Source: a virus
Taxonomy: Duplodnaviria; Caudoviricetes
IMG/VR virus record: IMGVR_UViG_3300021400_000252
Strand: one strand, 5' to 3'
DNA length: 64,000 nucleotides
The notes beneath the pieces are model-generated. The model saw only the letters and a list, made by a program, of their open reading frames with translations. It ran no database searches and was not told where the DNA came from. The translations under genes were made by a program, and so were the position numbers. The first letter of the stretch is position 1; every line of letters begins with the position of its first letter. Positions 1,010 through 63,720 of this stretch are shown piece by piece.

Positions 1010-1237
1010 ATGAAGAAAGAAAAATTATTCTGTTGTATTTGTGGTAATGAGATTAAAAAGGAAGGATGTCCAAATTACTTCGGTAATAACCCTGCGGGTG
1101 CGATGTGGAAAGATGAAAATGGAAATGTTTGTGAACCAACTTTCAATATCGATGCTAGATGCTGCGATGAATGCGATCATCGTTATGTAATTCCAGGAAG
1201 ATTATTTAAGTTAAGACAAATGAGAGGTGGAAACTAA
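1010..1237 (+). CDS. small Cys-rich (CxxC...CxxC) protein
   Basis: CCICG...CCDEC; GGAGG RBS; follows early promoter. Confidence 0.8.
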   Translation: MKKEKLFCCICGNEIKKEGCPNYFGNNPAGAMWKDENGNVCEPTFNIDARCCDECDHRYVIPGRLFKLRQMRGGN

Positions 1238-1238
1238 T

Positions 1239-1817
1239 ATGACTATAGATGAATTAATTAAAAGATTAGAAATTGCTAAGAGTGAATATGGTGGAAGAAC
1301 AAAAATCAGAATTTTCAGTTGTGGTTTAGAAGAAGTAGAAAATGCTTATTTTACTAATGGTTCAGACCCTGATGATAGATCTATGAATGATACTTCAATA
1401 ACTTTAGTAGGTAATTATAATGACCAACATATTACAGAATGTCTAGAGAATTTAGAATTCGGTGATGTTGAAGTTGAAGAGGTGCCTAAGGTTAAAACAA
1501 AAGGTTTAAGAGATGATTATTATCAAGGTTGTTATTATGATTTAGATACTAAAACTTGGACTCTTGGTGAAACAATGCCTTTACGTAAATTACTTGACTG
1601 TTGGTGGAACTCAGTTAATGTTGATGGTAATATTTGTTATAAGAACGCTTATCTTGAAGATGCAGAATATGAATTAGGTGAACTAAAAGAAGAAGACCTA
1701 GATAAGTTAGTAAAAGTTGCCGATGAGTGGGATGAAGATGGAGATGGCTACCCTACAATCAGTGCAGAATTTGTAGAAGAAGAAAAAAAGCATTTCAGCA
1801 TTTCTAAAAAAATTTAA
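1239..1817 (+). CDS. acidic hypothetical early protein
   Basis: ORF; ATG 1239 after GAGGTG. Confidence 0.75.
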   Translation: MTIDELIKRLEIAKSEYGGRTKIRIFSCGLEEVENAYFTNGSDPDDRSMNDTSITLVGNYNDQHITECLENLEFGDVEVEEVPKVKTKGLRDDYYQGCYYDLDTKTWTLGETMPLRKLLDCWWNSVNVDGNICYKNAYLEDAEYELGELKEEDLDKLVKVADEWDEDGDGYPTISAEFVEEEKKHFSISKKI

Positions 1818-1827
1818 AAAAATATCG

Positions 1828-1864
1828 AAAGGCTATTTACAAAGTAGCCTTTTTATGATATAAT
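1828..1864 (+). promoter_or_regulatory. early promoter with -35 embedded in a hairpin
   Basis: AAAGGCTA-TTTACAAAG-TAGCCTTT followed by TGATATAAT. Confidence 0.85.
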
Positions 1865-1897
1865 AATAATGAAGATAGATAAAGGAGGAATATATCT

Positions 1898-2230
1898 ATG
1901 AAAAAAATATTCGTTGTAAAAGAAGTTGAAACAAATTGTGAAGGTGCTCATATCGATGACACTGAAATAAGAACTGAAGTTTATTGTTATGGTTCAAGAG
2001 AAAAAGCCGAGGAATGCCTTAAGGACCTATATAAAGAAAAAATTATGGAAGAGCTTGGTTATGATTTAGATGATGAAGATGATTTAAAAGCTTATGAAGA
2101 TGATAAGGAAAATAATGGTTATCTAGAAACAGATCTAACACCAACTAAAGCCTACTTAAATATGTGGAGCCATCTTGAAGGTTGGAACTCATATACATTA
2201 GAAATTACAGAAGAGAATTTGGAGGATTAG
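1898..2230 (+). CDS. acidic hypothetical protein (paralogue of 2861)
   Basis: GGAGG RBS; similar N- and C-termini to 2861. Confidence 0.8.
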   Translation: MKKIFVVKEVETNCEGAHIDDTEIRTEVYCYGSREKAEECLKDLYKEKIMEELGYDLDDEDDLKAYEDDKENNGYLETDLTPTKAYLNMWSHLEGWNSYTLEITEENLED

Positions 2231-2234
2231 TAAT

Positions 2235-2774
2235 ATGTCAACTTGGAATAATTGTATTAAGAGATTTGATAATAATAAGGTTATAAGACTAGAACATTTG
2301 TTTTATGTTTTAGGACAAGAAGGTTGGGATAATCTTACTAAAGAAATCGAAGATGAAACTGATGGAAGAATAACTACAGTATTTACAGATGAAGTTCGTG
2401 GAATTAAGTCAAGATATAATTCAGAAGATGAATTTAAGACAGATTTAAAATTAGTAAATACTATAATTAAGAAATACGAGAAGATGGTTAAAAGAAGTTT
2501 AGAGATTAATTGTCTATGTAATTATGAAGAGGAAACTGCTCACCACGCAGTAGAGGATCGATATCAAGATAAAGATTGGTATGTGTTAAGATATGATACT
2601 GAAACTACAGAATACTATAATGAAATAGTTTTCCAAACATTTGATGAAGCATTAAAGAAGTTTAATAGAACTAAGCCTACTCATAAGAATGAAAGAGTTG
2701 AATTAATGTTTGCACCAACTGAAGACGACCCTGAATATTTCGATAACATAGTCGTTAAATATAAAACTTTATAA
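2235..2774 (+). CDS. hypothetical early protein
   Basis: ORF with GGAGG RBS. Confidence 0.8.
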   Translation: MSTWNNCIKRFDNNKVIRLEHLFYVLGQEGWDNLTKEIEDETDGRITTVFTDEVRGIKSRYNSEDEFKTDLKLVNTIIKKYEKMVKRSLEINCLCNYEEETAHHAVEDRYQDKDWYVLRYDTETTEYYNEIVFQTFDEALKKFNRTKPTHKNERVELMFAPTEDDPEYFDNIVVKYKTL

Positions 2775-2795
2775 AAAAAATAAAAAATTTATTAA

Positions 2796-2831
2796 AAAGG
2801 TATTTACAAAATACCTTTTTTGTGGTATAAT
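2796..2831 (+). promoter_or_regulatory. early promoter with -35 embedded in a hairpin
   Basis: AAAGGTATTT-ACA-AAATACCTTT followed by TGGTATAAT. Confidence 0.85.
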
Positions 2832-2860
2832 TAATGTAGATAAAGATAAAGAGAGGAAGA

Positions 2861-3187
2861 ATGTTTATGAAGAATGAAATTAAAGTTTATGTAGTTAATG
2901 AAGTTAGTTATGACGGTGAAGAAAGACTTGATGAAGGTTGTTTAGATATTAGTTCAAAGGTATTTACTACTGTTCAAGATGCAAAGAAATATATGGATGA
3001 AAGATTTGATGCATTCATTGAAGAGAATGAAAGTCTTTTAGAAGATGAACATGATTTTATTGATGGTTATACTTATGAAAGTGATAACGGACTAGAAAAG
3101 AGTTTTGAATATTATAATGAAGATGTAGACCAGAAACTTGATATTTATTTAACTATAACGGAACAAACAATCGAAATAGAGATTTAA
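2861..3187 (+). CDS. very acidic hypothetical protein
   Basis: D/E-rich ORF following early promoter. Confidence 0.8.
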   Translation: MFMKNEIKVYVVNEVSYDGEERLDEGCLDISSKVFTTVQDAKKYMDERFDAFIEENESLLEDEHDFIDGYTYESDNGLEKSFEYYNEDVDQKLDIYLTITEQTIEIEI

Positions 3188-3197
3188 AAAAATTATC

Positions 3198-3235
3198 AAA
3201 GAGGTATTTACAAGATACCTCTTTTGTGGTATAAT
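3198..3235 (+). promoter_or_regulatory. early promoter with -35 embedded in a hairpin
   Basis: AAAGAGGTAT-TTACAAG-ATACCTCTTT followed by TGGTATAAT. Confidence 0.85.
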
Positions 3236-3267
3236 ATAATTGTAAATAAGATAGGAGGAACAAACTT

Positions 3268-3504
3268 ATGTATGAAGAAGATTTTTATGGTATGAATGTT
3301 GGAGAAAGATTGGTGTGTATTAAAGGTTATACTCATCCAAACATGGGACTTGTATGTCGTAAAGGACAAAAGTATAAAGTCAATGCTACACGAGTAGAAA
3401 CTGATAGTGATATTGAATATGCTATTGGTAAACTTAGAGAAGATGGTGGAGTATGGATGTGTACTAAATTCATTGCAGAACATTTTATTAAGGAGGAAAA
3501 ATAA
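3268..3504 (+). CDS. hypothetical early protein
   Basis: GGAGG RBS. Confidence 0.75.
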   Translation: MYEEDFYGMNVGERLVCIKGYTHPNMGLVCRKGQKYKVNATRVETDSDIEYAIGKLREDGGVWMCTKFIAEHFIKEEK

Positions 3505-3507
3505 TTT

Positions 3508-3714
3508 ATGTTTAAATATTATGTAGGTAAAAGTGAAATAGATAAAGATGAATATCTTAGTTTCTTAATTGAGGATGCATTAGATAATGGATGTGGAGAA
3601 AAAGAAGCGAAGAAAGTAAAAAGAGAAAATGAACAAGATGCTAAAGTAAATAAGGAAAATACATTTACAACTTGTGGTGGTTTCGAACTAAAAATTAAAT
3701 ATATCAATGTATAA
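3508..3714 (+). CDS. hypothetical early protein
   Basis: GGAGG RBS. Confidence 0.75.
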   Translation: MFKYYVGKSEIDKDEYLSFLIEDALDNGCGEKEAKKVKRENEQDAKVNKENTFTTCGGFELKIKYINV

Positions 3715-3729
3715 TGGAGGTTTATTAAA

Positions 3730-4077
3730 ATGGAGTGTTTTAGAAGATTTGTTAAGAATGTATTAAAAGAAAATTATAATTTTAATTTTGATGGATGTTA
3801 TTTTAAAAGATTAGGAAGTAATAGAGAAGGTAAGTCGATATATTTAGTAATGTCTAATCTTGGCGATGAACTTGGACTGTGTGCGAAGTTGGCTATAAAT
3901 AAGTCTTCATTACAATGTGATTATGAATATGACTGGAGTGATTTAGTCGCCGACGGAGAATACATTGGTTGGAGTGAAGAGAATATTGACAGTATGCATA
4001 AAGCATTTAACCTAGACACATTCTGTAAAAATATAGAGAATGCATTTAAGTATGCAAAACAATTTAATTTAGATTAA
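3730..4077 (+). CDS. hypothetical early protein
   Basis: GGAGG RBS. Confidence 0.75.
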   Translation: MECFRRFVKNVLKENYNFNFDGCYFKRLGSNREGKSIYLVMSNLGDELGLCAKLAINKSSLQCDYEYDWSDLVADGEYIGWSEENIDSMHKAFNLDTFCKNIENAFKYAKQFNLD

Positions 4078-4087
4078 AAAAATTACA

Positions 4088-4124
4088 AAAAGGTATTTAC
4101 AAAAATACCTTTTTTTGATATAAT
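4088..4124 (+). promoter_or_regulatory. early promoter with -35 embedded in a hairpin
   Basis: AAAAGGTATTT-ACAA-AAATACCTTTT followed by TGATATAAT. Confidence 0.85.
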
Positions 4125-4158
4125 AATAGTAGATAAAGATAAGTGGAGGAATATAATT

Positions 4159-4362
4159 ATGAGTAATTTTAGAGTTGATGTATCTTATACAGATAGAAAT
4201 GGAAATCTAGTAGAGCTTCAATTAATTAGAGTTCTAGATAATGATAATAAGAAGGACCAAAATGAAGCGTATAGGAACGGTTTTTCTATCGATAGATATT
4301 CATTCAGGCAAGTAGGAAAATACAAAGATAGAAGCGGTTTTATTTATTATAGATATATTTAA
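4159..4362 (+). CDS. hypothetical early protein
   Basis: GGAGG RBS. Confidence 0.75.
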   Translation: MSNFRVDVSYTDRNGNLVELQLIRVLDNDNKKDQNEAYRNGFSIDRYSFRQVGKYKDRSGFIYYRYI

Positions 4363-4380
4363 TTAAGGAGGAAGAAAGAT

Positions 4381-4620
4381 ATGTTTAATAATATTAATGA
4401 CTGTTGGGAATACTTAACACAATCAAAGACTCTAGATGAACTAAATAGTAGAGTTGAAGAAATGCCTAAGTGGAGTGGAAGCTGGTTAGTAGAATATGTT
4501 AACACAAAGGAGCAAGAACCTTATCAATATGATGAATATGTAATTATCAATTGTGTTGATGATATGAATGAAGATAAGGAAACTATTTACTTTTCTAGTT
4601 TAACTGGAGAACAGATTTAA
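4381..4620 (+). CDS. hypothetical early protein
   Basis: GGAGG RBS. Confidence 0.75.
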   Translation: MFNNINDCWEYLTQSKTLDELNSRVEEMPKWSGSWLVEYVNTKEQEPYQYDEYVIINCVDDMNEDKETIYFSSLTGEQI

Positions 4621-4635
4621 AAGGAGGAATAAATT

Positions 4636-4878
4636 ATGAGTAAATTATATGGTTCATTACAAGGTTGTAGAGGTGAAGCTACAAGATGTGGTTCAAAAGA
4701 CTCTGGTATGAGAGCTAGTATTCAAAGCTGGAATGGTTCATTAGTAAGTTATATGGACTTAGATGAAAATGATAAGCCAATCATTACATTAAAGATTAGT
4801 AAAGGTTCTGCTTGTTATGGAGAAGAAACAATCTTCAGAGGTTCATTAGAAGAATTAAAAAAGAAATTAAAAAAATAA
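4636..4878 (+). CDS. hypothetical early protein
   Basis: GGAGG RBS. Confidence 0.8.
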   Translation: MSKLYGSLQGCRGEATRCGSKDSGMRASIQSWNGSLVSYMDLDENDKPIITLKISKGSACYGEETIFRGSLEELKKKLKK

Positions 4879-4950
4879 TTAAAAAAGTATTTACAAATCA
4901 CTGAAAGTGTAGTATAATATACTTGTAAATAATAAAGGAGGAATATTATT

Positions 4951-5436
4951 ATGAAGCATGTAAATTTAAAGGAGAAAACAATTTATAAGGACTTAGGTTT
5001 ATTTTCAATCGAAGAAGAGAAACAATTAATAAAAGATTATTTCGATGGTTGTGAAGAAGATATGGAAGGTTTAACAGAAGATCAAATCAGAGACAGAATA
5101 AATGATTGGAATATTAGTTGTTATGAAGATGACTTTGGACCTGAAGGAAATTGGTATTACAGTGATTTGAAAAATACTCCAGTCGTAATTACAGGAACTT
5201 TAGGACTTTGGAATGGAAGACACAAAATTGATAATGTTAAGTGTGATAATCTAGAAATAGCTTTAGGTAAAATACTAAACAATGATATCGATTATGTTAA
5301 AATTACAGAAGATAGATTTGGAAACTTAAGAGTGTATGGTTATCATCACGACGGAACTAACGAATTCGTAATTAAGAAGTGGACTCCAAATGGAATGAGA
5401 TGTCTTAACTTCTGTAAAACAGTATTTGGAAATTAA
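4951..5436 (+). CDS. hypothetical phage protein (G-LGLW-G...HHDG motif)
   Basis: GGAGG RBS; follows early promoter at 4890. Confidence 0.8.
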   Translation: MKHVNLKEKTIYKDLGLFSIEEEKQLIKDYFDGCEEDMEGLTEDQIRDRINDWNISCYEDDFGPEGNWYYSDLKNTPVVITGTLGLWNGRHKIDNVKCDNLEIALGKILNNDIDYVKITEDRFGNLRVYGYHHDGTNEFVIKKWTPNGMRCLNFCKTVFGN

Positions 5437-5454
5437 ATAAATCATTAATAAATT

Positions 5455-5483
5455 ATAGAGGTTAGCAATAGCCTCTATTTTTT
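5455..5483 (+). terminator. intrinsic terminator
   Basis: ATAGAGGTTA-gcaa-TAGCCTCTAT followed by T tract. Confidence 0.75.
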
Positions 5484-5579
5484 ACGTTTTAGGAACGTTT
5501 TATTTTAGACTTGATAAAACACTTATGGAAAACTTAAAACGCAATTCTAGATATGATAGACGAATGCTAGGATATATTT

Positions 5580-5643
5580 AACTAATTATTTTTAGTTGCC
5601 TATAAAGATAATTTGGATCTATGGATTTCGGAGTCTATGCTTT
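5580..5643. repeat. intergenic A/B repeat cassette copy 2 (B then A)
   Basis: AACTAATTATTTTTAGTTGCCTA at 5580; TTCGGAGTCTATGCTTT at 5627-5643. Confidence 0.75.
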
Positions 5644-5689
5644 AATCCAGTTTTTACGGGGACTTTAGGGGAGAGTGATTAGACAGAAA

Positions 5690-5860
5690 TATTTTTTTCG
5701 AAAGAAAAGGTTTTTTAAATATTCTCTTTCTCAAAAATAAAATAAAATAAATATAGTATACTTAATAGTATAATACTTAATAGTATACTATAAACTTATA
5801 TAACTCTCTTATATAAAGAAAGAAAAAGAAAAATAATATAAAAAGAAAAAGAAAGAAAGT
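5690..5860. other. AT-rich non-coding region with inverted and direct repeats (candidate replication origin)
   Basis: TATAGTATAC...GTATACTATA inverted repeat, tandem TACTTAATAGTA, purine-rich AAAGAAAA tracts. Confidence 0.35.
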
Positions 5861-5865
5861 TTAAT

Positions 5866-5874
5866 TGCTAAATT
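5866..5874 (+). promoter_or_regulatory. candidate late promoter motif TGCTAAATT, first of 13 copies
   Basis: Copies upstream of genes at 5866, 8437, 15992, 24088 (AGCTAAATT), 24832, 25680, 35116, 43924, 51163, 58984, 59031, 59974, 61338. Confidence 0.75.
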
Positions 5875-5913
5875 AACTGATTTATGTCAAACTACATAAT
5901 AGGAGAATTAATA

Positions 5914-7176
5914 ATGGTAAATTTTGTTTACGAAGTTAGAAATATAAACGATCCAATCTTAGGTGAAACACCTAGATTTGCTTCAGACAAGGAAGCATTT
6001 GAATTAGCAAAAGAGTTTGATGGTGCAGAAGTTTATGCTTTATGTTATGATGAAGATTGGAATTTAGTAAGTGAGGATAAAATTACTGAGGCTGATATGG
6101 AATTACCTGATGGATGTGACTCATGTTCAGGTGATAATCCAGCTAATTACGATGATGAAGGAAATTTTAGACTTCCTGAAACTGACGATGATTTAGATGA
6201 AGAGTTTAAAGAATATTTCTTTCCAAAAGAATTTTATGATAGATTTAAATGATTTAGAGGATCTAAAGCAGATTGCTTAAATTTTAGAAATGAATATTTA
6301 AATGACAGTGATTGGATTGAAATTGTAAAAGATGGAAACACAGAGAATAATGAAATTCCTGAATACACTATTAATTTTACTAAGGACCATCTTATTAAAC
6401 CTGAGCTTTGGGATACTTTAGAACATGAAACTATTGGTGATGAGTTAAAAGCAGCAAGAGCTAAAGATGAAACTTTAGTAAGTGATGAGGCTGCTGAAGA
6501 ACACCCTGTTGATGAATGTGTTAAAGCACCTGAAAAGAAAGAATTAGTAAAAGAATCTCTACCTCCATTTAAAACAGGAGCTCCACTAGATTTTCAACAA
6601 TTAGACTACGATTATGCTAATGATGATGTTTATTATAAAGACAAGAAAGTTATCGCTTTTCAAGAGCCACATGAACTTGCTGTAGAAATTTATAATAGCT
6701 ATATCAATGAAGAAGGTTTAACAGAACAAGACTTAATTAATTATCCAATGTGTGAAAATGGAATATTAACTAAAGAAGCTTGGACAAAATTCTTAGATAC
6801 TGCAGATCCAACTCAATATTGGTTAGGCTGGGCAGATTTAGTACGTGAGGCTGATTTAACAGAAACAGATTTAATTTATGAAGGTGAGGAACCTTCTGTT
6901 AACGAATCATGTGAGTCTTGTAAAGAGTGCGGAAGTTGTGAAACACAAGAAGATGATGATACATTATTTAATGAAAACTTTACTCCAGAAGAAGATGAAG
7001 AATTTAAAAATCTTAGTAAGACTTTAGGATTTAAAGACTTTAAAGATGTATTAGATTTCAGTAAAGACCATGGAAGTGTTTTCGACAGAGAGCTTTTACA
7101 GTCAATGCGTGAGGAAGCAGAAAAGCTTGCTTCAAATTCAGTTGATTTCGAAACTCAATTTAATAATAAGAACTAA
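5914..7176 (+). CDS. acidic late protein, possible internal head protein (420 aa, TGA at 6250 read through)
   Basis: AGGAG RBS with ATG 5914; frame open across TGA 6250 into the track ORF 6748-7176; VKES/VNES/FNEN motifs. Confidence 0.8.
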
Positions 7177-7296
7177 AATAATTTAGTTGCCTACGGACCT
7201 ATCATAGGTCCTTTTATTTTTTATTTAAAAAGTATTTACAAAGTTTCAGAAATGTTGTATAATAAATGTAGAAAAAGAAATAAGGAGATAAAGTAT

Positions 7297-7500
7297 ATGT
7301 ATAAAGTAAATGTTGAGTCAAGTAATATTAATAGTATTGGTTATGAAAATGGAGAACTAGTTGTTGATTTTAAAGGTGGTTCATCTTATAAGTATTTAAA
7401 TGTTCCACAAGAAATGTTTATCAACATGATTAACTCTGAAAGCAAAGGTAAATTCTTAGCAGAGAACTTAAAGAATAAATATGAATTTATAAAACTTTAA
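7297..7500 (+). CDS. KTSC domain protein
   Basis: VESSNINSIGY...FKGGSSYKYLNVP...SKGKF matches the KTSC consensus. Confidence 0.9.
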   Translation: MYKVNVESSNINSIGYENGELVVDFKGGSSYKYLNVPQEMFINMINSESKGKFLAENLKNKYEFIKL

Positions 7501-7578
7501 AAATTTTTCTAAAAGGTATTTACAAAACATCAATTTAATGTTATAATAATAGTGAAGAAAGATAAAGAGGTGTTATGT

Positions 7579-7839
7579 ATGATGAACTTTGATGGTAATA
7601 AAGAAGAAAGACAGAAGTGGTGGAACGTAGTAGTTCTAATGCCAGATAATTCTATAAGATTAAGTTTCGCACGTGGTGAGGACTACGAATCAGCAAAGCG
7701 TTGGTTCGATAGAGCAACTTACACAGTTGAAAGAAGTGACTACAAAGAAATACTAGAGTTCAGTAAAGATTGTAGTTCTACTTATAATGAATTTGTAGAA
7801 AAAGAAAATAAATTAAAAGATAAATATAATATCAAATAA
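7579..7839 (+). CDS. hypothetical early protein
   Basis: GAGGTG RBS; follows promoter at 7519. Confidence 0.75.
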   Translation: MMNFDGNKEERQKWWNVVVLMPDNSIRLSFARGEDYESAKRWFDRATYTVERSDYKEILEFSKDCSSTYNEFVEKENKLKDKYNIK

Positions 7840-7853
7840 GAGGTGAAGATAAA

Positions 7854-8156
7854 ATGAAGTTTGGAGAAATAAAAGGAATTTTAAATAATATAGAAAAGTT
7901 AGATACAACAAAACCTGATTGTACGCAGGAGTTTTCAATCTCATTAGCTGGAAGTCAAGATTATGTGTTAGCAAATCAGATTACAGGTACTGATTTAGAT
8001 GAACTAAGTGATTTTGAAGTAGTAGATATTGAGTCAGGAGATTTTGGATTAGTGGTAACTTTTAAGTATGTACCAACAATCATTCCTGCTTTCGGAGCTT
8101 TAGCAAAGCGCTATAGAGCACCATTACAATCTAAAACTTACTATCATTTAAATTAG
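7854..8156 (+). CDS. hypothetical protein
   Basis: GAGGTG RBS. Confidence 0.75.
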   Translation: MKFGEIKGILNNIEKLDTTKPDCTQEFSISLAGSQDYVLANQITGTDLDELSDFEVVDIESGDFGLVVTFKYVPTIIPAFGALAKRYRAPLQSKTYYHLN

Positions 8157-8198
8157 TAAATAATAAACCAGACTCTAAAAGAAAGGAGATGAAAAGTT

Positions 8199-8414
8199 AT
8201 GAAATTAGAAATTGCTTTTAGAAATGGAAACATGGAGAAGAAACAATTTAAAGATGAAAACGAAGCTAGAGATTACTTAAAATCTATTGGCACCGAAAGT
8301 ATTATCTATTTCGATGTTCTAGACGATAATGATAATTTCAACTTTGACTCTCCATTGCTTAACGAGTCCTACCCAAGACCGGCAGAAGATATAATTGAAT
8401 GACAAATAAACTAG
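8199..8414 (+). CDS. hypothetical protein (ends 8402 if TGA is a stop, 8414 if read through)
   Basis: AGGAG RBS; TGA 8400 followed four codons later by TAG inside the terminator stem. Confidence 0.7.
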
Positions 8415-8473
8415 GTTAATTACCTAGTTTTTTAATTGCTAAATTGGATAAACTGTTTAAAGGAGTTTTGATT

Positions 8474-8623
8474 ATGAAACTGTTTAAAATATTTTTCGCT
8501 GATGGAAATACTGTTCACAGATTTGCAGAAGATAAAGATACTTTAGTGAGTGAACTAAATGAAGAATTTCCAAACAGAGAAATTGTAATGATTACAGTTG
8601 TTGACGAAAAAGAAGAGTTTTAA
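8474..8623 (+). CDS. small hypothetical protein (49 aa), not in ORF track
   Basis: AGGAG RBS, MKLFKIFFADG...EEF; downstream of TGCTAAATT 8437. Confidence 0.7.
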   Translation: MKLFKIFFADGNTVHRFAEDKDTLVSELNEEFPNREIVMITVVDEKEEF

Positions 8624-8656
8624 TTGTATAATAACATATAGGAGATTTAGTCTAAT

Positions 8657-8893
8657 ATGAAGCTTCATGAACTTGTAGATAAGTTAACATCAGGACAATT
8701 TAATATCTATCATGAATATAAAGCTTACTTTAAAGGATCTATCATTAAGAAAGATTATGAAGATAAACCTAGATTTGACTTTGAATTAGAACCATATTCA
8801 GATTTCAGTGATTTAGATGTTGTGAGTTTTAACTTAGCTGTATCTTCAGACGTTTATGACCAAACTCCAGTTCTAGATATTGTTGTTAAGTAA
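8657..8893 (+). CDS. hypothetical protein
   Basis: AGGAG RBS; TTGTATAAT upstream. Confidence 0.75.
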   Translation: MKLHELVDKLTSGQFNIYHEYKAYFKGSIIKKDYEDKPRFDFELEPYSDFSDLDVVSFNLAVSSDVYDQTPVLDIVVK

Positions 8894-8906
8894 AGGAGAC
8901 TAAAAC

Positions 8907-9104
8907 ATGGAACAAGATATTAATGATTTATTAAAGACTTTAATTGTTGAGAAGGATCTAGAGATTAGAAACCTAAACATCACAAATTCAAATTTGGCTA
9001 ATCAAAATGAAGAGTTAAGGAAGAGAGTTCAAGAACTTCAAGACAGATTATTAAAGACTCAAACAACACCTGCACCTGTTGAAGAGATGCAAAGCAAGAA
9101 GTAG
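8907..9104 (+). CDS. coiled-coil hypothetical protein
   Basis: AGGAG RBS; heptad pattern. Confidence 0.75.
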   Translation: MEQDINDLLKTLIVEKDLEIRNLNITNSNLANQNEELRKRVQELQDRLLKTQTTPAPVEEMQSKK

Positions 9105-9115
9105 GAGGACTAAGT

Positions 9116-9409
9116 ATGGGAATAGTATTCGATAACTCTGCACAAAGAGTTCAGATTAAAGATCTATTGAATGATGAAGAGAACAGATTTATTTTAAATA
9201 GATTACAAGCAGGACGTTATAGAACTCCAGATGGATATGATGCACCTTATAGATTAAGTGATGAAGAATTAGTTAAATTACAAGATGAATATATTTATAT
9301 TCAAACAGATGGTGATTGTTGGTATGCTCGTTTCGAAAAACCTACAAGCGAAATCAGAGAGTTGTTAGGACTTCCAATCCAATCAGATAACCCATTTGAT
9401 ATGTTTTAA
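9116..9409 (+). CDS. hypothetical protein
   Basis: GGAGG RBS. Confidence 0.75.
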   Translation: MGIVFDNSAQRVQIKDLLNDEENRFILNRLQAGRYRTPDGYDAPYRLSDEELVKLQDEYIYIQTDGDCWYARFEKPTSEIRELLGLPIQSDNPFDMF

Positions 9410-54474: not shown

Positions 54475-55812
54475 ATGTCAAAGTTAACCTTTGTTCTACC
54501 AACATGCGAACCGGATACAATTAAAAAATATTTAGTTAAATCATTAAAATACTTATTAAAAATTAAAGATAAAATATCTTTTGGGATTTGTTTTCAACCT
54601 CCATATACTGAACAACAAATTCAAGAGATTATAACTTGGTTTGAACCTTTTGATTTTAAATATATTTTTAAAGATTATAAAATTGAAAAACCTAAAGTAC
54701 CATTAATGAAAATGAGGAATGATTGTGCTATGCTCTATCCAGACTCAGATTATTATGCATTATTAGATGATGACATGGAATTTGAAGAAGGAATAGATAA
54801 ATATTATGATGATGTTATAAAATCTATGGATGAAGATCAAAAATTATGTGTTTGTTCTTTTTCTAAGAGGCCTGTAGCTTTAGAAAATTGTTTTTATACT
54901 AATGCTGGGTTAATTTATAGAGGTGGAAAATATTATGGTTATGAAGGTTTAGTACCACATAGACTACCTAATGAATGTTATACTTTAAAACCTTATGATG
55001 GAGAAGACTTAACAGAATTATTTGGTGGTCATCAAGATGAATTATGTGCAATGATTAGAATTGCTCAAGGTGGTTTAACTAAAAGTTATATAAGTGTTCC
55101 AACAAGACATTGAGAAAATAGAAAAGTTTTTGGATATATTCAACATGGTTGGAAAGGTGCTGAACCAATTGATGGTTCTGTCTGTAGTTTTATTAGAAAA
55201 TATTTTTGTAGCTTATATGATCTAGCTCATCGTAATCCAATTTTTGATGAAAAATTAAAACTAATGTTATCTCATCAAAGACGTGTCTTATTAGTAGAAC
55301 AATTAGCCCATCCAATGAAATTTACTTTAAATTTAAATAAATATACGAAAGTTTATTTCACTAATCACTCGACACCAAGAGATGAAAGATCAGTAAATAG
55401 TAATTCAATTAAGTATTCATTTAAAGTAACTAAAGCAGAAGATTATAAAGAATTTACAGTTTTACAATTACATTCTTTAGATAATGGACATGTTCCAGTA
55501 ATTAGAATTTCTATTATAGATAATAGTATTTATATTACTTATAAAGATAATTGTAATGTAAATCATTATACTAAATTGGATAACTTTGAATTAAATCAAG
55601 ATTATACGATTAGTATTAATATTACATCTGATTCTATTGAAATAAATGATGGTAAATGGAAATACGAAAGATGGTTTAATAAACATGAATTTAGATACGG
55701 AATTTATCCTCAGACTGATTTCGGTAACTATGAATTAGTTGTTCATAAAATTGAAATAGATAAAGTCGTTAATAACTGGGTAATAGATAAATATAGAAAT
55801 GTTAGATTATAA
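54475..55812 (+). CDS. GT-A glycosyltransferase fused to PL7-like lyase/lectin domain (445 aa, TGA at 55111 read through)
   Basis: YYALLDDD; C-terminal PRDE..., VLQLH, FRYGIYPQ. Confidence 0.7.
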
Positions 55813-55877
55813 GACCTGAATTTAATATTAAAAGAAAATACCTAGATTCTATATAAAATTTTAATAAGGAGATACTT

Positions 55878-57038
55878 GTGAAAACGAAATTTAGATTCCA
55901 TGTACTTGGAGTACCACATACTAAAACTAATTTAAATTATACTCAGTGTGCATATACTCAGAAAATATATAAATTTTGTAAAATGATGACTGAACGAGGT
56001 CATGAAGTTATCCATTATGGAGTTGAAGGAAGTAATCCGATTTGTACTGAAAATGTAATAGTAGTTTCAGATGAAATTTATAAAAAAGTATATGGTAATT
56101 ATGATTATAAGTCTAGTTTTTTTAAATATAACGTTAATGATGAATGTTATCAAACTTTTTATAAAAATGCTATTATTGAAATTAATAAACGAAAGAAACC
56201 TCATGATTTTTTATTACCATTTTGGGGTGCTGGAGTTAGACCAGTCTGTGATGCATTTCCAGATCTAATTGTTGTAGAACCTGGTATCGGATACGGTGAA
56301 GGACTTTGGGCTAAATATAAAATTTTTGAATCTTATGCTATTTATCATGCTTATCGCACATTAAATTCAGTAGCATATTGCCATCAAAATCAATATGAGG
56401 TCGTAATTCCAAACTATTTTGATTTAAATGATTTTGAAACAAATTTTGATAAAGAATCTAGATTAAATAATAAAGATAGATATTTCTTATTTGTTGGACG
56501 CGTCTATGATGGAAAAGGTGTAAATATTGCTATTCAAGTTTGTCAAGTATTAGGTATTAAATTAAAAATTGCTGGACAACTTAGTGATAAGTATAAAAAT
56601 TATAAATGGCCAGATAATATAGAATATGTAGGAAGTGTTAATACAAAACAACGAAGTGACTTAATGAAGAATGCTATTGCTTCATTTTTACCTTCTCAAT
56701 ATGTTGAACCATTTGGAGGCGTACAAATTGAAAATCTCCTTTGTGGTACTCCAACAATAACTAGTGATTGGGGTGGATTTGCAGAGAATAATATTAACGG
56801 ATTGACTGGTTATAGGTGTAGAACATTTGACGATTATTTAAATGCAGCGTTAAATTGTCTAGATGGAAAAATTGATTATAAAGAATGTAGAAAGTTCGGA
56901 GAAAATTTTAGTCTTGAAAACGTTGCATTAAAATATGAAAAGTATTTTAATGATGTATTAACTTTATATACTAATAGGGATGGTTGGTATACTATTTCAA
57001 ATGAAACTCGTAAGAGAATTAATCAAATTAAAAATTAA
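55878..57038 (+). CDS. GT4 (GT-B) glycosyltransferase
   Basis: FLFVGR...KGV, EPFGGVQIE..LCGTP. Confidence 0.9.
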   Translation: MKTKFRFHVLGVPHTKTNLNYTQCAYTQKIYKFCKMMTERGHEVIHYGVEGSNPICTENVIVVSDEIYKKVYGNYDYKSSFFKYNVNDECYQTFYKNAIIEINKRKKPHDFLLPFWGAGVRPVCDAFPDLIVVEPGIGYGEGLWAKYKIFESYAIYHAYRTLNSVAYCHQNQYEVVIPNYFDLNDFETNFDKESRLNNKDRYFLFVGRVYDGKGVNIAIQVCQVLGIKLKIAGQLSDKYKNYKWPDNIEYVGSVNTKQRSDLMKNAIASFLPSQYVEPFGGVQIENLLCGTPTITSDWGGFAENNINGLTGYRCRTFDDYLNAALNCLDGKIDYKECRKFGENFSLENVALKYEKYFNDVLTLYTNRDGWYTISNETRKRINQIKN

Positions 57039-57063
57039 AATACTTTATTAATTGGAGCTTAAT

Positions 57064-58056
57064 ATGGAAAATATAAAAAATATTAAAGCAATTATAGATC
57101 TAAAAGGAAAATGTCAATCAGTTATTAAGTGGAGATTAACTGATGCTTGCAATTATAGATGTTCATATTGTTTACGATATGCTTGGAGTAAAAAGCCACA
57201 AGATTTAAAATATTTACAAGAAGATATTAAGTTAATAAATGAGGCAGCTCCTGAAGTTGCTAGAATAATAAATGAAATGCCTGGTAAAGTTAAATTAGAT
57301 TTAATCGGTGGAGAGGTCTCTTTATTAGATTTAACTTCAATATTAACTACTTTATTTAAAATTTGTGGAAATAAATTATTTAGAATAAATATTACAACTA
57401 ATATGTCTAATTCGGCTGAATATTATACTAGTCTATGTAATCTTGTGGATAGCTATGGAGCTGAATTGGGAGTAACTTGTAGTTTTCATTCTGAATTTAC
57501 TACATTAGACAAATTTATTTCAAAAATAAAACAAATAAAACATCCAACTGCACAAAAAGAAATCCGTGCTGAATTAGTCTCTCATTTATATAATCAAGAG
57601 TTAGTAAGACAATTTATAGATATTTGTGAAAAAGAAGGTATAACATATTTTGTCGAAAGAGACTTAAGTGCAGATCCAGAGATTAAATCTCAATTATTAA
57701 TTGGTTCTAGTAAGAAAAAATTAGATCGATATAAAGTTATTTCTGATACAAATGAAGAAAAATTATATAAAACAAGAAATGAAGTAATTAGTGGTAATTT
57801 AAGTGATTATAGACATTATTTAGAATTAAATGGATTGTATTGTACAAGAGATTATGATTACGTCTATATCGAAAAAGATGAACATATTGGTAGAATAGGT
57901 GATTCTGACTGTAAACAACGTGAAAATATCTTCTATTTTCACCCACTGGCCGAACCAAAATTATGTATAAAACCTGGTTGTACTTTATGTGGACATATGA
58001 GTGTGAGTAAAGTAAAAGAATTATTAATGTTAGATAAAGAAGGTCAAGAAAAGTAA
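57064..58056 (+). CDS. radical SAM protein
   Basis: CNYRCSYC, LIGGEV, TTN, SFH; C-terminal Cys cluster. Confidence 0.88.
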   Translation: MENIKNIKAIIDLKGKCQSVIKWRLTDACNYRCSYCLRYAWSKKPQDLKYLQEDIKLINEAAPEVARIINEMPGKVKLDLIGGEVSLLDLTSILTTLFKICGNKLFRINITTNMSNSAEYYTSLCNLVDSYGAELGVTCSFHSEFTTLDKFISKIKQIKHPTAQKEIRAELVSHLYNQELVRQFIDICEKEGITYFVERDLSADPEIKSQLLIGSSKKKLDRYKVISDTNEEKLYKTRNEVISGNLSDYRHYLELNGLYCTRDYDYVYIEKDEHIGRIGDSDCKQRENIFYFHPLAEPKLCIKPGCTLCGHMSVSKVKELLMLDKEGQEK

Positions 58057-58127
58057 TCTTGACCTTCTTTTATTAATATTGTATAATATATTATAATATA
58101 TTATAGTAATAAATTTAGGAGTTAAAT

Positions 58128-58946
58128 ATGTTAGATAAACGTATTGTCGTTGTTGGGTTTGGAGTTGTAGGTAAACTTGAATATGATATATTATTTGAAA
58201 GATATACTCCGGATATTTTAGATTTAAATGGGAGTATGTTATTTTCTACTGGAAGTTCAGAATTATTAAAATTTGAAGATGCTTTAGAAAAAATAAAAGA
58301 TGTAGAATATGATTTAGCAATAGTTGCAGTTCCAACACCTTATGATAAAGAAAGTGGAGTTTTAGATTGTCATTTAGTTTATGATGCTGTAAAAGAAGTA
58401 AATGCTAAAATTTATTTAATTAAATCCACAGTTAATGTTGGTTATTGTGATTATTTAGTTGCACAAACAGGTAAACATATAATTCATAGTCCAGAACATG
58501 CCGGAGCAACACAACATTGTAATAATTTTAATTATGATTTTACAATTTTAGGTGGAGATACAGAGGATTGCCAAGTTGTTCAAGAAATATATCAAGAAAT
58601 ATTCGATGCGAGACATATATTTAAGTATATAACTAGAAGAGAAGCTGAAACAGCTAAACTTGTAGAGAATTGTTATTTACCAACAGTTGTAAGTTTTTGA
58701 ACAAGTATTTGAGAAAGTTGTAATAAATTAGGTATTTGTTTTGAAAATGTAAGAGAAGCTGTTTTATTGGATCCAAGAATACCGAGACCACACTCCGCAG
58801 TATATCCAAGCCACCCATTCTGAGATAGTCATTGTTTTAATAAAGATGAACCAGCATTTGCAAATCAAACTGGAAATGAATTATTAAAAAATGTATATCA
58901 ATTCAATGATCAAATGAAAGATAAATATAAAAATAATAAAAAATAA
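58128..58946 (+). CDS. UDP-glucose/GDP-mannose dehydrogenase family protein, short form (272 aa, three TGAs read through)
   Basis: GFGVVG, AVPTP, IKSTV, SPE, AKLVEN, DPRI, SHCFNKD; the catalytic Cys lies after the TGAs. Confidence 0.88.
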
Positions 58947-59075
58947 AAAGAGTTATTAATAACTCTTTTTTTATATATTTATATGCTAAATTATGTGATA
59001 AGTAATTTAAATAAAAGTTATTAAACGATATGCTAAATTATTTAGTTAATATTTTGTTTTTTGGAGGTGACCAGC

Positions 59076-59576
59076 ATGCCAGTTTGGTTAACAGTATTTT
59101 TAGCTCTGGGCGGATCTGCTCTAATAACTTTAATAGTAAATACAATCTGGCGTCATAGTGCTGCTAAGATTAATAGAATTAAAGAATTAGAAAAGAAAGC
59201 CGAAGACGATGCAAGACATGAAGAAGAAAGACGTCGTCAAGAAGAGTGGGAACAAAAAGTTCTAGATTTAATTCATCCGTTATCAGTAAAATTGGATGAA
59301 ATTCAAGAAGAATTAAAATTAAATAAATCAGCTACCACAACAAGTTTAAGAACAGACTTAATGTTATTAAGAGATAGATATAGAGATTTAGGTTATGCAT
59401 CAAGAAATGATAAAGCAGCTTGGAATCAACTATATAATGACTATAAAGAATTAGGTGGTAATCATTTTAAAGAATATGTTGATCAGTGGAAAGAAGAAGT
59501 TAATAATTTACCAACAATCCCTGATATAGAACATGGTAAAGGCAGAAGAACTGAAGATAAAAAGGAGAACGAATAA
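59076..59576 (+). CDS. membrane-anchored coiled-coil protein (holin-associated type)
   Basis: N-terminal TM; LYNDYKELGGNH; late motif at 59031. Confidence 0.75.
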   Translation: MPVWLTVFLALGGSALITLIVNTIWRHSAAKINRIKELEKKAEDDARHEEERRRQEEWEQKVLDLIHPLSVKLDEIQEELKLNKSATTTSLRTDLMLLRDRYRDLGYASRNDKAAWNQLYNDYKELGGNHFKEYVDQWKEEVNNLPTIPDIEHGKGRRTEDKKENE

Positions 59577-59920
59577 TGGATTTTGTAGAAAATGCTAATG
59601 CAATCGTTGCATTAATTAGTGCAGTTGTAGGTTTACTATCTGCTGCTATTCCTCTAGGAGTTGTAATTTATAATTTATTTAAAGGTAAGAAAGCAAAAGA
59701 AGTATTTGCAGATTTAAAAGATATGGCTATGGCTGCTATTGTAGAAGCTGAAAAGACAGGTAAAACTGGTGCTGAAAAGAAAGAGATTGCTATTGCTGCT
59801 GTTAAAGCTGCAGCTGCTGCAAAGAACATTGATATTACACCATTCATGGATGCTTTATTAGCAGTTATCGATCAAATAGTTGCTAATAATAATGCATTTA
59901 TTGAAGCTAAGAAAAATTAA
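59576..59920 (+). CDS. LL-H-like holin
   Basis: N-terminal TM; EAEK...GAEKK..A. Confidence 0.75.
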   Translation: MDFVENANAIVALISAVVGLLSAAIPLGVVIYNLFKGKKAKEVFADLKDMAMAAIVEAEKTGKTGAEKKEIAIAAVKAAAAAKNIDITPFMDALLAVIDQIVANNNAFIEAKKN

Positions 59921-60013
59921 TTATAAATTTTTAAGGTCTAAATTAATTAGACCTTTTTTATTTTACTTTTAATTGCTAAATTGTATGAGTAATTAATTTA
60001 TAGGAGAAAGACT

Positions 60014-60442
60014 ATGGCAAAAATATTTGATTCATACAATAATGGTGATATTAGCCACGAATTTCCAAAAAAATGTCCTAAAAAAATAAAAAGACCTGAA
60101 TATTTAACTTCAGCTAAATTAGTATATAATCTTTCAAATGAATTTATTGGAGTAGAGGCAAAAGAAGATACCGTATTTTCATTATTTTTCACTCTAGTAA
60201 ATGCCGATGAAGATTTATTAACTAATGGTTATTTTTATTTAGAAATCTATGATAGATATCATAAATTATTAAAAGATATAGATTTAGACGTTTGTCTTAC
60301 AAATAGAACTGTTAGTACTCAAATTTATGCAGATGAAGCCGAATTACCATATGGAAATTATTATATAAATTTAAAAGTAGACTATAATGATGTTTGCTAT
60401 GTATTAATTTCAGAAAATGATATGATTTTAAGTATAAAGTAG
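60014..60442 (+). CDS. late structural protein (Ig/BppU-like)
   Basis: TGCTAAATT at 59974; LPYGNYYINL. Confidence 0.65.
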   Translation: MAKIFDSYNNGDISHEFPKKCPKKIKRPEYLTSAKLVYNLSNEFIGVEAKEDTVFSLFFTLVNADEDLLTNGYFYLEIYDRYHKLLKDIDLDVCLTNRTVSTQIYADEAELPYGNYYINLKVDYNDVCYVLISENDMILSIK

Positions 60443-60451
60443 GAGACGTAT

Positions 60452-60931
60452 ATGGATGAATTAAAAATAAAAACTATTGTTGGTGTCTGCCCACCAGATG
60501 CACCAATTATTCCAAGTGATGAATATGTTAGATATATTTCTCGTGGAGCCACAGTTGTCTTTGAATTCGATTTAGATCAAAAAGCTTATACTTTTAATGA
60601 TATTGAACAACTTTCATTTTTATTTAAACAGTATAATAAATTATTAAAATATGATTTATATACTGAAGGAAAAGTTTTAAATCCATTATTTTGTTTTGAC
60701 TATGATGATTATAATGAAGTAATAATCATTAAATTAAGATTACCAGCTGAAGAAACAGTTAAATTTAAGAAAACAACTAAAGAAAATTTAATTCCGTGCG
60801 AAGTAATGATTCACTTAAATTCAAATGAAGATTATAATCAAGATGAAACAACAATTTTAGAGAATTTACCTCCTCTAAATGTAACCGATACTCTTTATGG
60901 AAAGTTCTTAGAACGAAAAGAGGAGAACTAA
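60452..60931 (+). CDS. BppU-like baseplate protein
   Basis: RGAT...L..EET..F pattern. Confidence 0.65.
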   Translation: MDELKIKTIVGVCPPDAPIIPSDEYVRYISRGATVVFEFDLDQKAYTFNDIEQLSFLFKQYNKLLKYDLYTEGKVLNPLFCFDYDDYNEVIIIKLRLPAEETVKFKKTTKENLIPCEVMIHLNSNEDYNQDETTILENLPPLNVTDTLYGKFLERKEEN

Positions 60932-61291
60932 ATGGAAAATGCAAAACCAATAACAATTATACGTGGTGATTCATTATCATTTTTATATACTATTTATGAT
61001 CAACAATGTAGTATTTGTGCTGAACCATATACACTAACAGATGATGACATTTTATATTTCGGAGTAATGTTACCACATGGAAGATTTGAAGACGCTTTAA
61101 TTAAAAAGAGCTTTACAAAAGAAGATTTAGTTAATGATAAATATATTAGAATTAAATTAACTAGTGATGAAACTGCTCAAATTGTTCCTGGAGTATATTA
61201 TTATGAAGTTAAATTAGCAAAAAATCTAGGAATGGAAAATGAAGAAGTAATTACAACAACTAGAAAAACTAAGTTTATAATTTTAAATTAA
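60932..61291 (+). CDS. BppU-like baseplate protein
   Basis: IIRGDS...LTSDET...PGVYYYEV. Confidence 0.75.
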   Translation: MENAKPITIIRGDSLSFLYTIYDQQCSICAEPYTLTDDDILYFGVMLPHGRFEDALIKKSFTKEDLVNDKYIRIKLTSDETAQIVPGVYYYEVKLAKNLGMENEEVITTTRKTKFIILN

Positions 61292-61386
61292 AAAGTGACA
61301 TTTTTGTCACTTTATTTTTTTAGATAAACTATCCATTTGCTAAATTAGATGATTTATTGAAATACTTATAATGGAGGTTTTTTACA

Positions 61387-63720
61387 ATGGCTCAAACTAA
61401 AAATAAAACCAATTATGTTAGAAATCTTAAAGGTTTAAGTACTGATACTAAACCTATTTATGATATACGTGGAAATGGTTCGACTTTTACAGAAATTGAT
61501 ACAGGAAATATTTATATATATAATGCTAATACTAAAACTTGGGTTCTAGATAAAGAAAATCCAAAATTACCTGAAGAACAAACATATAAAGGTATTAAGG
61601 AAATTGTAAAAGATCCAAATTATCCAACCGAAGACCATCCATTAACAGATAGATATATTATCAAATATACTAACGGTACTGAATATGACTTTTTCGTTAA
61701 TAACGGTGAAAAAGGTGATATTGGTGAACCTGGTAAAGATATGGATAAAGTTGTATTGCGATACAGCGAAAACGGTAAGGCTGACGGTCCATGAGCTGAT
61801 CAAAAGGTAGTTCAATGGAAACATAATTCATTACCAGATACTGACGAAAATTGGAATGATTTATTCCCAATTGCAACAATCTCTCAAGGATATAGTCCAC
61901 AAATCAATCCAACAACAGGACGTTGGATGATTCAAGAAGGTGGTCAAATAGTTGATTCAGATGTTTCAGCTTATCCACATGATTTAGAAATTAGAAAATC
62001 TGAAAATGAATTACAATATAGAGTAGTCGATCATGATGGAATCGCTATTACAGATTGGGTAACTTTTGCAAATACTCAAGATATTAAAGGTGATAGAGGT
62101 GTCGGTATTGTATCTGTAGAAAAAACAGCAACTGACGGATTAGTTGATACTTATACTATTACTTATTCTGATGAACATACTTCAACATTTAGTATAGTAA
62201 ATGGTGCACAAGGTGAACAAGGTCCTCAAGGTCAAAAAGGTGAAGCAGGTAATGGTATTTATGCTATAGATGTAGATTCTTATGATGAAGAAACAAGAAC
62301 TACAACATATAGAATAGTTTATACAAATCAAGATTATACAACATTTACTATTAAAGATGGTGAACCTGGTCCTAAAGGTGATAAAGGAGAAATTGGTCCT
62401 AAAACCATTTTCAGAGTTGAAGGCAATTATTTACAATACAAAGCTGAAAACGCATCTACGTGGGTTAATTTGATATCTATAGATCAAATTAAAGGTCCTA
62501 AAGGCGAAACAGGGGCGGATGGTAAAGACGGTATAAATGGTATTTCTGGTGTTGGAATCGTCAACATCGAAAAAATTAAGACTGTAGGTAAAATAGATAC
62601 TTATCAAATAAATTATACTGATGGTAGCTCAAATACATTTGATGTAGCTAATGGTGCAGATGGAACTAGTTTAGTTGGTATTAGCTGGTCTGAAGATAAA
62701 AAAACATTAATATTTGAATTATCAAATGAAGAAGAAATTAGAGTCGATTTTACAGATATTTCTAAAAATTTAATTAATGTAGATGATGGAGAAATTGGAC
62801 AAGTCTTAACTATTGTTGATGATGGTGATGGAAATAAAGTTATTGGATTCACAAATAAAACCGCTTATACTGGTACAAATGGAGTTACAGTAAATAATCA
62901 AGAGGTTAGTGCCGACTTAGACTATCTAAATGAACATCTTAAATATAATGGACAAGGTCCTATTAGAACTACTGTTGGTGGATTAACTTATGGTACTGAT
63001 ATTAATAATTGGACATTTAAAAAGTTATTAGATAAGATGTTATATCCTTATCAACCACCTCAAGCATTTAGCATTAAACTTCAACAAAACGTTTATGAGA
63101 TTGGTGAAACTCCTTCTCAAACACTTTCATCAATCCAATTTTCAAAAAGAGATGGAACTGATCCAATTAATAAATTGAAAGTTAAATATCGTAAAACACT
63201 TAATGACGCTTACACATATATTTATGGTGCTAAAAATGATGAAGATGAATATATTGATGATTTTGGTCCATACGCTAATTCTATAACAATTGAACCAATA
63301 ACATTTGAACAAAGACGTGTACCTGGAAATTATGATTGGTTCTATTCAACAGTATCTGATGGAACAAATCAGCTTTCTGCTAGTGTAAATGTTAATGCAT
63401 TTACTGTTTATGACTATTATAAAATAGTTGATACTGGTGAAGAATTCACTCCAACTAGTTTAATAAGAATTAGTACTGATGGTGAGACATCTATTAATAT
63501 TGAAGACGGAAAAACAATTTATTATTTATCAAAAACAAATGGTACTTTAAAAACATATGATGAATTTGCTGGTCAATTCTTAGAATTAGAAGATGATGGA
63601 CAATTTTATCACAAAGTTGGTACTAGTGAAATTACCCTTCAAAGTGGATTAACTAACCAAACTTATTATGTACATAAATTCACTCCATTAGTTGGAGATT
63701 CATTTAAATTTAAGATTTAA
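61387..63720 (+). CDS. collagen-repeat tail fibre protein (777 aa, TGA at 61792 read through)
   Basis: TGCTAAATT 61338, GGAGG RBS; Gly-X-Y runs alternating with GI..I...DTY.I.Y repeats; the two track ORFs share one frame. Confidence 0.85.

Follow-up and report, generated by a model that had tools for sequence, protein, structure and literature searches.

The present analysis concerns the codon TGA, read as tryptophan (Trp), in a 64,000-nucleotide stretch of viral DNA (IMG/VR record IMGVR_UViG_3300021400_000252; Duplodnaviria, Caudoviricetes), which at its full length is called here the window, and the manner in which this codon is distributed among genes that lie behind two different promoter motifs. 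The G+C content of the window is 28%, its purine skew is strong, and with few exceptions its genes are on the plus strand. From 0.9 to 24.8 kb it holds small genes with no family matches; from 24.8 to 43.9 kb follow nrdD, nrdG, an RNA ligase, a kinase/HD protein, a GlmS-like protein, PhoH, NADAR and radical-SAM genes; a glycan cluster (43.9–59.0 kb) then encodes two GT2 proteins, a methyltransferase, a Stealth protein, asparagine-synthase-like and alginate-lyase-like proteins, a GT1, a radical-SAM protein and a truncated Ugd-like protein; and 3′ of this cluster lie a holin (59576–59920) and a tail-fibre-like protein of 777 amino acids (61387–63720). Among GenBank phages no close relatives of the window were found, and the comparisons rest on a sister strain, L001 (ODAJ014735075.1, a 16-kb metagenome contig, 97.6% identical), on shorter related contigs and proteins, and on two relatives fetched whole, G001 (166.5 kb, 93% complete) and G002 (146.5 kb, 64% complete), in which genes were called by a simple filter of open reading frame, ribosome-binding site and purine content. 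The codon tests cover the window and these two relatives, and ratios such as 0:97 are TGA:TGG.

Two upstream motifs are sharply over-represented in the window. The first, of sigma70 type (TTTACA-N16-18-TATAAT), has 17 matches where 0.5 would be expected, and the 16 that are intergenic, between 948 and 17108, share the full form gTATTTACA-N14-TGnTATAAT. The second, TGCTAAATT, has 12 exact matches against 2.35 expected, every one of them intergenic and on the plus strand, placed 20–70 nucleotides before a start codon and often directly following a terminator; a -35 element is lacking. Each gene was assigned to its nearest upstream motif, those behind sigma70-type promoters forming the early class; the non-early class comprises the genes behind the 12 TGCTAAATT motifs and the minus-strand glycan genes. 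TGCTAAATT is not supported as a strictly late promoter and is better described as "post-early": besides the holin cassette and the tail fibre gene, nrdD and phoH lie behind it, as do three genes within the early region. Among the copies in the window no sub-variants of its flanks were evident that would split middle from late promoters. The features of the two classes are the following:

948, 1836, 2803, 3207, 4096, 4890, 7235, 7519, plus strand: sigma70-type promoters of the early class, matching the consensus
9556, 10203, 10913, 12161, 12843, 13251, 15133, 17108, plus strand: the rest of these promoters, matching the consensus (block 948–17136)
1010–24825, plus strand: early region, 51 early-class genes, mostly small, with 0 sense TGA and 97 TGG
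5866–5874, plus strand: TGCTAAATT upstream of the TGA-bearing gene 5884/5914–7176
8437–8445, plus strand: TGCTAAATT, small genes downstream without TGA
15992–16000, plus strand: TGCTAAATT upstream of 16050–17045 (5 TGG, 0 TGA)
24832–24840, plus strand: TGCTAAATT, exact match, 5′ of 24877–25560
25680–25688, plus strand: TGCTAAATT directly upstream of nrdD
35116–35124, plus strand: TGCTAAATT upstream of phoH
43924–43932, plus strand: TGCTAAATT at the head of the glycan cluster
51163–51171, plus strand: TGCTAAATT, exact match
58984–59039, plus strand: two TGCTAAATT motifs upstream of 59076–59576 and of the holin 59576–59920, both genes without TGA
59974–59982, plus strand: TGCTAAATT, exact match
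61338–61346, plus strand: TGCTAAATT upstream of the tail-fibre-like gene

The division of the Trp codons between these classes is clear. In the 51 early-class genes behind the 16 sigma70-type promoters (0.9–24.8 kb) the ratio is 0:97, as the initial annotation had claimed in saying that such genes use only TGG, and in all other genes of the window it is 16–17:146 (Fisher p = 0.0004–0.0007; p = 0.006–0.03 when the minus-strand genes and the 54475–58946 operon, to which no promoter is assigned, are left out, or when a terminal TGA at 8400 is counted as early-class). The genes that carry TGA, together with two TGG-only genes, are as follows:

5884–7176, plus strand: gene of 430 amino acids (420 from 5914), TGA at 6250
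8199–8414, plus strand: early-class gene whose terminal TGA at 8400, already called ambiguous, has a TAG four codons on, within the terminator stem
24877–25560, plus strand: gene of 227 amino acids with no assigned function; codon 12 is TGA (24910), and a ribosome-binding site precedes 24877
25748–27973, plus strand: nrdD, 8 TGG and no TGA, as had been claimed
28888–29118, plus strand: gene of 76 amino acids, tandem TGA-TGA at 29089 and 29092, where relatives have TGG-TGA or TGA-TGA
29175–30269, plus strand: RNA ligase, 7 TGG and no TGA, likewise as claimed
35185–36045, plus strand: PhoH-like ATPase, TGA at 35518 inside Walker A (GT-W-GTGKT)
37724–38158, plus strand: DUF7831 protein, TGA at 37757 (codon 12)
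48453–48971, plus strand: gene in which TGA at 48885 is probably sense, the frame staying open for 28 more codons
51206–51856, plus strand: gene of 216 amino acids, TGA at 51509 and 51581, 1 TGG
51900–52538, minus strand: gene of 212 amino acids, glucosyltransferase-like by a weak match; TGA at 52436
52541–53890, minus strand: asparagine-synthase-like protein, TGA at 53857 and 53200
54475–55812, plus strand: alginate-lyase-like protein with a TGA (55111) that a 46%-identical paralogue in L001 spans without interruption
58128–58946, plus strand: truncated Ugd-like protein, TGA at 58698, 58710 and 58821, no TGG
61387–63720, plus strand: tail-fibre-like protein of 777 amino acids, TGA at 61792

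The ten read-through genes named in the initial annotation are all present in this list, including the Ugd-like gene with TGA at all three of its Trp codons, and one gene is added to them, 28888–29118; the TGA at 48885 counts as a probable sense codon. In total, the window has 17 sense TGA across 12 genes (18 if the terminal TGA at 8400 is included) against 245 TGG, which makes TGA 6.5% of the Trp codons.

That these codons are translated, and as Trp, is supported by several kinds of comparison. Translation with code 4 fuses or lengthens about a dozen frames; in the gene at 5884–7176, the sole TGA gene within the early region, about 165 codons remain open past the TGA at 6250; and in the PhoH, Ugd-like, asparagine-synthase-like (Asn_synthase) and DUF7831 proteins the in-frame TGA falls inside the family match. 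When the codons of all fetched relatives are aligned, a TGA of the window stands opposite TGG of a relative 16 times, a TGG of the window opposite TGA 36 times, and TGA is common to both 12 times, the TGA of the relatives being otherwise mostly opposite phenylalanine (Phe) or tyrosine (Tyr). All three TGA positions of the Ugd-like gene are TGG in three relatives (L007, L008, L010); the second TGA of the asparagine-synthase-like gene (residue 231) corresponds to a Trp that is invariant across 5 homologues; the position of the tail-fibre TGA is Trp in a full-length homologue of 786 amino acids (P0002); and the DUF7831 TGA is opposite Tyr or Phe in distant homologues. The TGATGA at 29089/29092 encodes Trp-Trp and is not a double stop, because one relative (L002) has TGG-TGA there and the alignment runs on past the site. 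As a terminator, TGA has nearly disappeared, with 41 TAA, 10 TAG and at most one TGA among the stops of the 51 early genes, and with 8400 as the sole possible TGA stop among about 110 genes. The apparent N-terminal TGA at 10402, 17155, 17713, 17722, 18582 and 47474 belong to ribosome-binding-site or leader sequence and lie outside the genes. No bias that holds throughout is seen in the base after TGA as against the base after TGG: G002 alone reaches p = 0.003, and the values for the window and G001 are 0.14 and 0.22. TGA is thus read as Trp in the phage of the window, which needs gene calling with code 4, as otherwise 12 genes are split or truncated.

The TGA in the Walker A motif of PhoH (window 35509–35532) had also suggested glycine as its meaning (code 25), a candidate that was dropped, since relatives have TGG in that column: TGG in 6 and TGA in 6 of 12 related IMG/VR phages. 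The residue is thus Trp in this phage clade and Phe in more distant phage PhoH, and a solved PhoH structure (3b85) has alanine at the same position.

The absence of TGA from the early class might be no more than a matter of composition or of expression level, the TGA:TGG ratio following A+T pressure or codon bias without any role for timing. The early genes do have fewer A-ending codons (a fraction of 0.75 as opposed to 0.85 in the others), and within the non-early class the share of TGA is weakly correlated with the A fraction (rho 0.37, p = 0.025). When the odds of TGA are scaled by the A:G ratio of the other purine-ending codon pairs, however, 5.7 TGA would still be expected in the early class and none is observed (P = 0.003). 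The glycan genes lead to a similar result: the initial annotation had seen a bias towards TGA in them, which stands for a 7.8-kb sub-cluster at 51.2–59.0 kb (9:17), but not for the first half of the cluster (43.9–51.1 kb, 0:25). The A+T content of the window is highest in this hot spot (25% GC, A fraction 0.90), which speaks for composition, but neighbouring regions of the same composition have 0:25 and 1:15. Moreover, in G001 and G002 the share of TGA is uncorrelated with the A fraction (rho about 0), in which the classes are equal. As regards expression, highly expressed genes such as the tail sheath of G001 are TGG-only, which agrees with an effect of expression level. The G+C content at third codon positions (GC3) does not alone explain the absence of TGA from the early class, while contributing a little inside the window, and composition or expression as the whole explanation is improbable.

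The pattern is repeated in the two relatives, at much higher levels of recoding, the share of TGA being 6.5% in the window, 21% in G002 and 38% in G001. G002 has both motifs, with 4:80 in its early class as opposed to 95:316 in the TGCTAAATT class (p = 4e-5), or 0:36 and 59:234 when ends are trimmed and only genes of at least 150 amino acids are counted. In G001, where the enriched upstream motifs are ATTGTATAAT and ACTAAATT, the early-type class has 96:266 as opposed to 105:62 (p = 2e-15), with equal A-ending fractions of 0.85. The bias by promoter class claimed in the initial annotation is thus significant in the window (p = 4e-4) and in both relatives. By region, the share of TGA in G001 varies from 4% to 94%, while the other purine-ending codon pairs remain steady at 81–89% A; parts of this genome, at 80–94%, match the A-ending share of the other pairs. 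As the regional share varies and the A-ending share does not, TGA behaves as a neutral synonym in some regions of G001 and is strongly avoided in others.

G001 also carries what may be the means of the change of code. In its record, IMGVR_UViG_3300021399_000106, positions 37814–39315 (L059:17814-19315) comprise a ATTGTATAAT promoter of early type at 38131, a tRNA(UCA) at 38184–38259, a hairpin, and a class-I Trp/Tyr tRNA synthetase with no TGA. An open reading frame of 103 amino acids just upstream of the tRNA(UCA) has 2 TGA and no TGG, and could be a feedback sensor. In G002 the tRNA arrays sit behind sigma70-type promoters.

These tRNA genes bear on a further explanation, namely, that the host itself uses code 4 with TGA as a rare Trp codon, and that the phage mirrors its host. 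TGA is nearly absent as a terminator in every class and a tRNA search of the 64-kb window found none, both of which such a host would account for. Nevertheless, it is very improbable, firstly, because nothing would then keep TGA out of the early genes, in which 0 of 97 Trp codons are TGA; and also because relatives encode their own tRNA(UCA) and Trp/Tyr-type synthetase. The known A+T-rich code-4 bacteria, moreover, favour TGA over TGG, and the promoters and strong Shine-Dalgarno sites of the window resemble those of ordinary low-GC Gram-positive bacteria. Standard-code hosts are predicted for clades of this kind by Borges et al. (bioRxiv 10.1101/2021.08.26.457843).

Another explanation is a selected translational timer, in which TGA would be kept in particular late, glycan or lysis genes in order to delay their proteins until the suppressor tRNA accumulates, and would thereby fix the sequence of events. 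The products that the standard code would give from such genes are indeed stubs without function, PhoH being cut before the P-loop, the tail fibre at 135 of 777 residues and the asparagine-synthase-like protein at residue 11, and the tail-fibre, lysis and glycan end is the TGA-richest region in the window and in G001. Against this, the sites are not conserved (52 TGA/TGG swaps and 12 common TGA), the Ugd-like gene being all-TGA in the window and all-TGG in three relatives. Nor are they placed early within genes, the median relative position being 0.50 for TGA and 0.51 for TGG in the window (p = 0.88), with no 5′ bias in G002 and a marginal one only in G001. The concentration of recoded codons in late and lysis genes, to which the initial annotation had appealed, does not apply to the lysis genes here, since the holin (59576–59920) and its neighbours (59076–61291) have no TGA, and the holin and the next three genes no Trp codon of either kind; the homologues of the holin and its neighbours in G001 do carry TGA. 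In the relatives, the pattern is not one of structural genes against replication genes: in G001 the TGA-rich genes are a tail fibre (5:0), a helicase (6:0), an exonuclease (5:0) and a UvsX-like protein (2:0), and the TGG-rich ones are the tail sheath (0:5), RNA ligases, a Ro-like protein and the DNA polymerase (2:8). Finally, a translational block would add little if these genes are already transcribed late.

The position directly behind TGCTAAATT, which the initial annotation had emphasized, also has to be separated from membership of the class. The majority of genes behind the motif are TGA-free, including 6 of the 11 first genes; first genes alone give 0:28 in the early class and 6:45 behind TGCTAAATT (p = 0.08), and within the TGCTAAATT class 6:45 in first genes and 8:97 in those downstream (p = 0.39). 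As nrdD itself lies behind TGCTAAATT (25680) and most first genes lack TGA, the effect of the immediate position is not significant on its own; in G001 this position likewise has no extra effect.

If we accept that a standard-code early regulon is followed by a code switch driven by the phage, as in the model of Borges et al., a reading that the class split and its recurrence in the relatives support, several observations nonetheless weigh against it in its simplest form: (i) TGA is strongly over-dispersed among genes of the same class (permutation p ≤ 2e-4 in all three phages), therefore promoter class is not the sole determinant; (ii) the 54475–58946 operon, which contains 4 TGA, is preceded by TATAAT-like boxes and not by its own TGCTAAATT; (iii) the genome's own tRNA-Trp is not in the window; (iv) the terms "early" for the sigma70-type class and "post-early" for TGCTAAATT are labels taken from the sequence alone; and (v) there are two departures from random placement, as in G001 the first Trp codon of a gene is TGA more often than expected (22 against 16.5 after trimming; position p about 0.05), and in G002 the first gene behind the motif is enriched in TGA (36:47 against 59:269). 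The excess in G001 hints at some selected placement, and both are what a timer would lead one to expect, as is the homing endonuclease of G002 (8:1), which is directly behind TGCTAAATT, just upstream of a DNA polymerase with 0:12 (the pair at L056:1018-1623 and L056:2586-5798 of G002), and which echoes a case in Borges et al. A timer selected as such is nevertheless unlikely, and passive tolerance of TGA fits at least as well as its selected placement for timing and is somewhat the more likely of the two.

In summary, the phage of the window would be a jumbo phage of the rumen in which TGA is read as Trp by means of a phage-driven code switch, to which we assign a probability of about 0.7; of the original proposal, the standard-code early phase followed by the switch is supported, and the selected timer, with its sites unconserved and without 5′ bias in the window, is not shown. 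According to this scheme, the genes behind sigma70-type promoters would be translated by the unmodified host, for which TGA is a stop, and selection would keep them free of it. Once the phage had made a UGA-reading tRNA-Trp, such as the one observed in G001, TGA would become readable, and A+T-biased mutation could then let TGG drift to TGA in genes expressed later, that is, those with TGCTAAATT motifs and the glycan module. The extent of the drift would be set by the tolerance of each gene to imperfect suppression and by a mosaic exchange of modules between differently recoded relatives, with purifying selection acting against TGA both in genes that are needed ahead of the switch and in core genes with high expression. 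As genes with TGA give no full-length protein before the switch, the codon would therefore act as a lock, whether selected or not. Whether the code is partitioned by regulon in the whole clade, so that a host-sigma70 regulon including the tRNA(UCA) and synthetase keeps the standard code and a CTAAATT-type regulon uses code 4, is a proposal to which we would give even odds. If it were true, relatives with 6%, 21% and 38% TGA would represent a natural series in the spreading of a reassigned codon, from accessory and mobile genes towards a neutral equilibrium, without the early regulon ever being entered.

Some further observations concern the genes and regions mentioned above. The Ugd-like protein (58128–58946, 272 amino acids) has neither the UDP-binding domain of the C-terminus nor a complete NAD-binding domain, and represents a truncated family specific to phages, and not a broken gene, because its relatives have the same short form. 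The asparagine-synthase-like gene is a mosaic, its first ~50 residues being identical to P0064 and the remainder ~59% identical, a pattern that points to recombination within the glycan module. For neither this gene nor 5884–7176 did searches of viral contigs find a relative. In L001, a 1.3-kb insertion (L001:351-1662) between window positions 28743 and 28860 encodes the 46%-identical paralogue of the alginate-lyase-like gene, and the two strains diverge completely after phoH. The lack of Trp codons from 59576 to 61291 (the holin and three proteins of no assigned function, 534 amino acids in all) would have a Poisson chance of ~6e-4, in a test made post hoc. Lastly, a gene-free stretch of 1.2 kb (10941–12160, 33% G+C) lies directly behind the early promoter at 10913; between 10948 and 11900 the predicted RNA fold is far more stable than that of shuffled sequences (z = -4.5), and short motifs are repeated within it. 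It has no Rfam match, no Rfam families having been found in the window, and is a candidate for an early long non-coding RNA.

Large lytic phages such as T4 use early promoters of the host sigma70 type and then later promoters specific to the phage. The window resembles such cascades in that it has two sharp motifs, of which the host-type one is clustered at one end before small unmatched genes, and TGCTAAATT, without a -35 element, stands before genes for nucleotide metabolism, holin and tail fibre; it differs in that separate middle and late motifs are not distinguishable in it.

Recoding has been reported to be frequent in rumen jumbo phages (PMC13037316). The phenomenon and its proposed regulatory role were described by Borges et al. 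(bioRxiv 10.1101/2021.08.26.457843), who put forward the model of a standard code early and an alternative code late, and also covered the loss of TGA as a stop, suppressor tRNAs, the tryptophanyl-tRNA synthetase and release factor 1 (RF1) of the Jade phages, and a recoded homing endonuclease. To this the present data add the promoter motif as the level at which the split is resolved, in three relatives (that work does not use the word "promoter"), a stage at which recoding is sparse, and counter-examples to a simple link with late and lysis genes. With 16 host-type promoters, 51 TGA-free genes and the same pattern in two relatives, they offer a case, sorted by promoter class, on which the published idea of two genetic codes used one after the other by recoded phages can be tested, and a caution that the enrichment of recoded codons in late genes may reflect tolerance and not design.

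The likeness to the Jade, Sapphire and Agate clades of TGA-to-Trp gut and rumen phages is that of a large, low-GC phage of gut type, in which in-frame TGA stands for Trp and hardly ever serves as a stop, and in which recoded codons are missing from the genes expected to be expressed first. The TGA-free unit of tRNA(UCA) and Trp/Tyr-type synthetase in G001 resembles the "code change operon" of Jade, and the TGA-rich homing endonuclease of G002 resembles Agate. In contrast, recoding is sparse in the window, its lysis cassette is not recoded and the excess is found in a sub-cluster for glycan synthesis, while in G001 replication and recombination genes (helicase, exonucleases, UvsX-like protein) carry TGA and the tail sheath has none. 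The TAG-to-glutamine crAss-like and Lak phages (code 15) differ in the codon, the amino acid, the phage lineages and the hosts.

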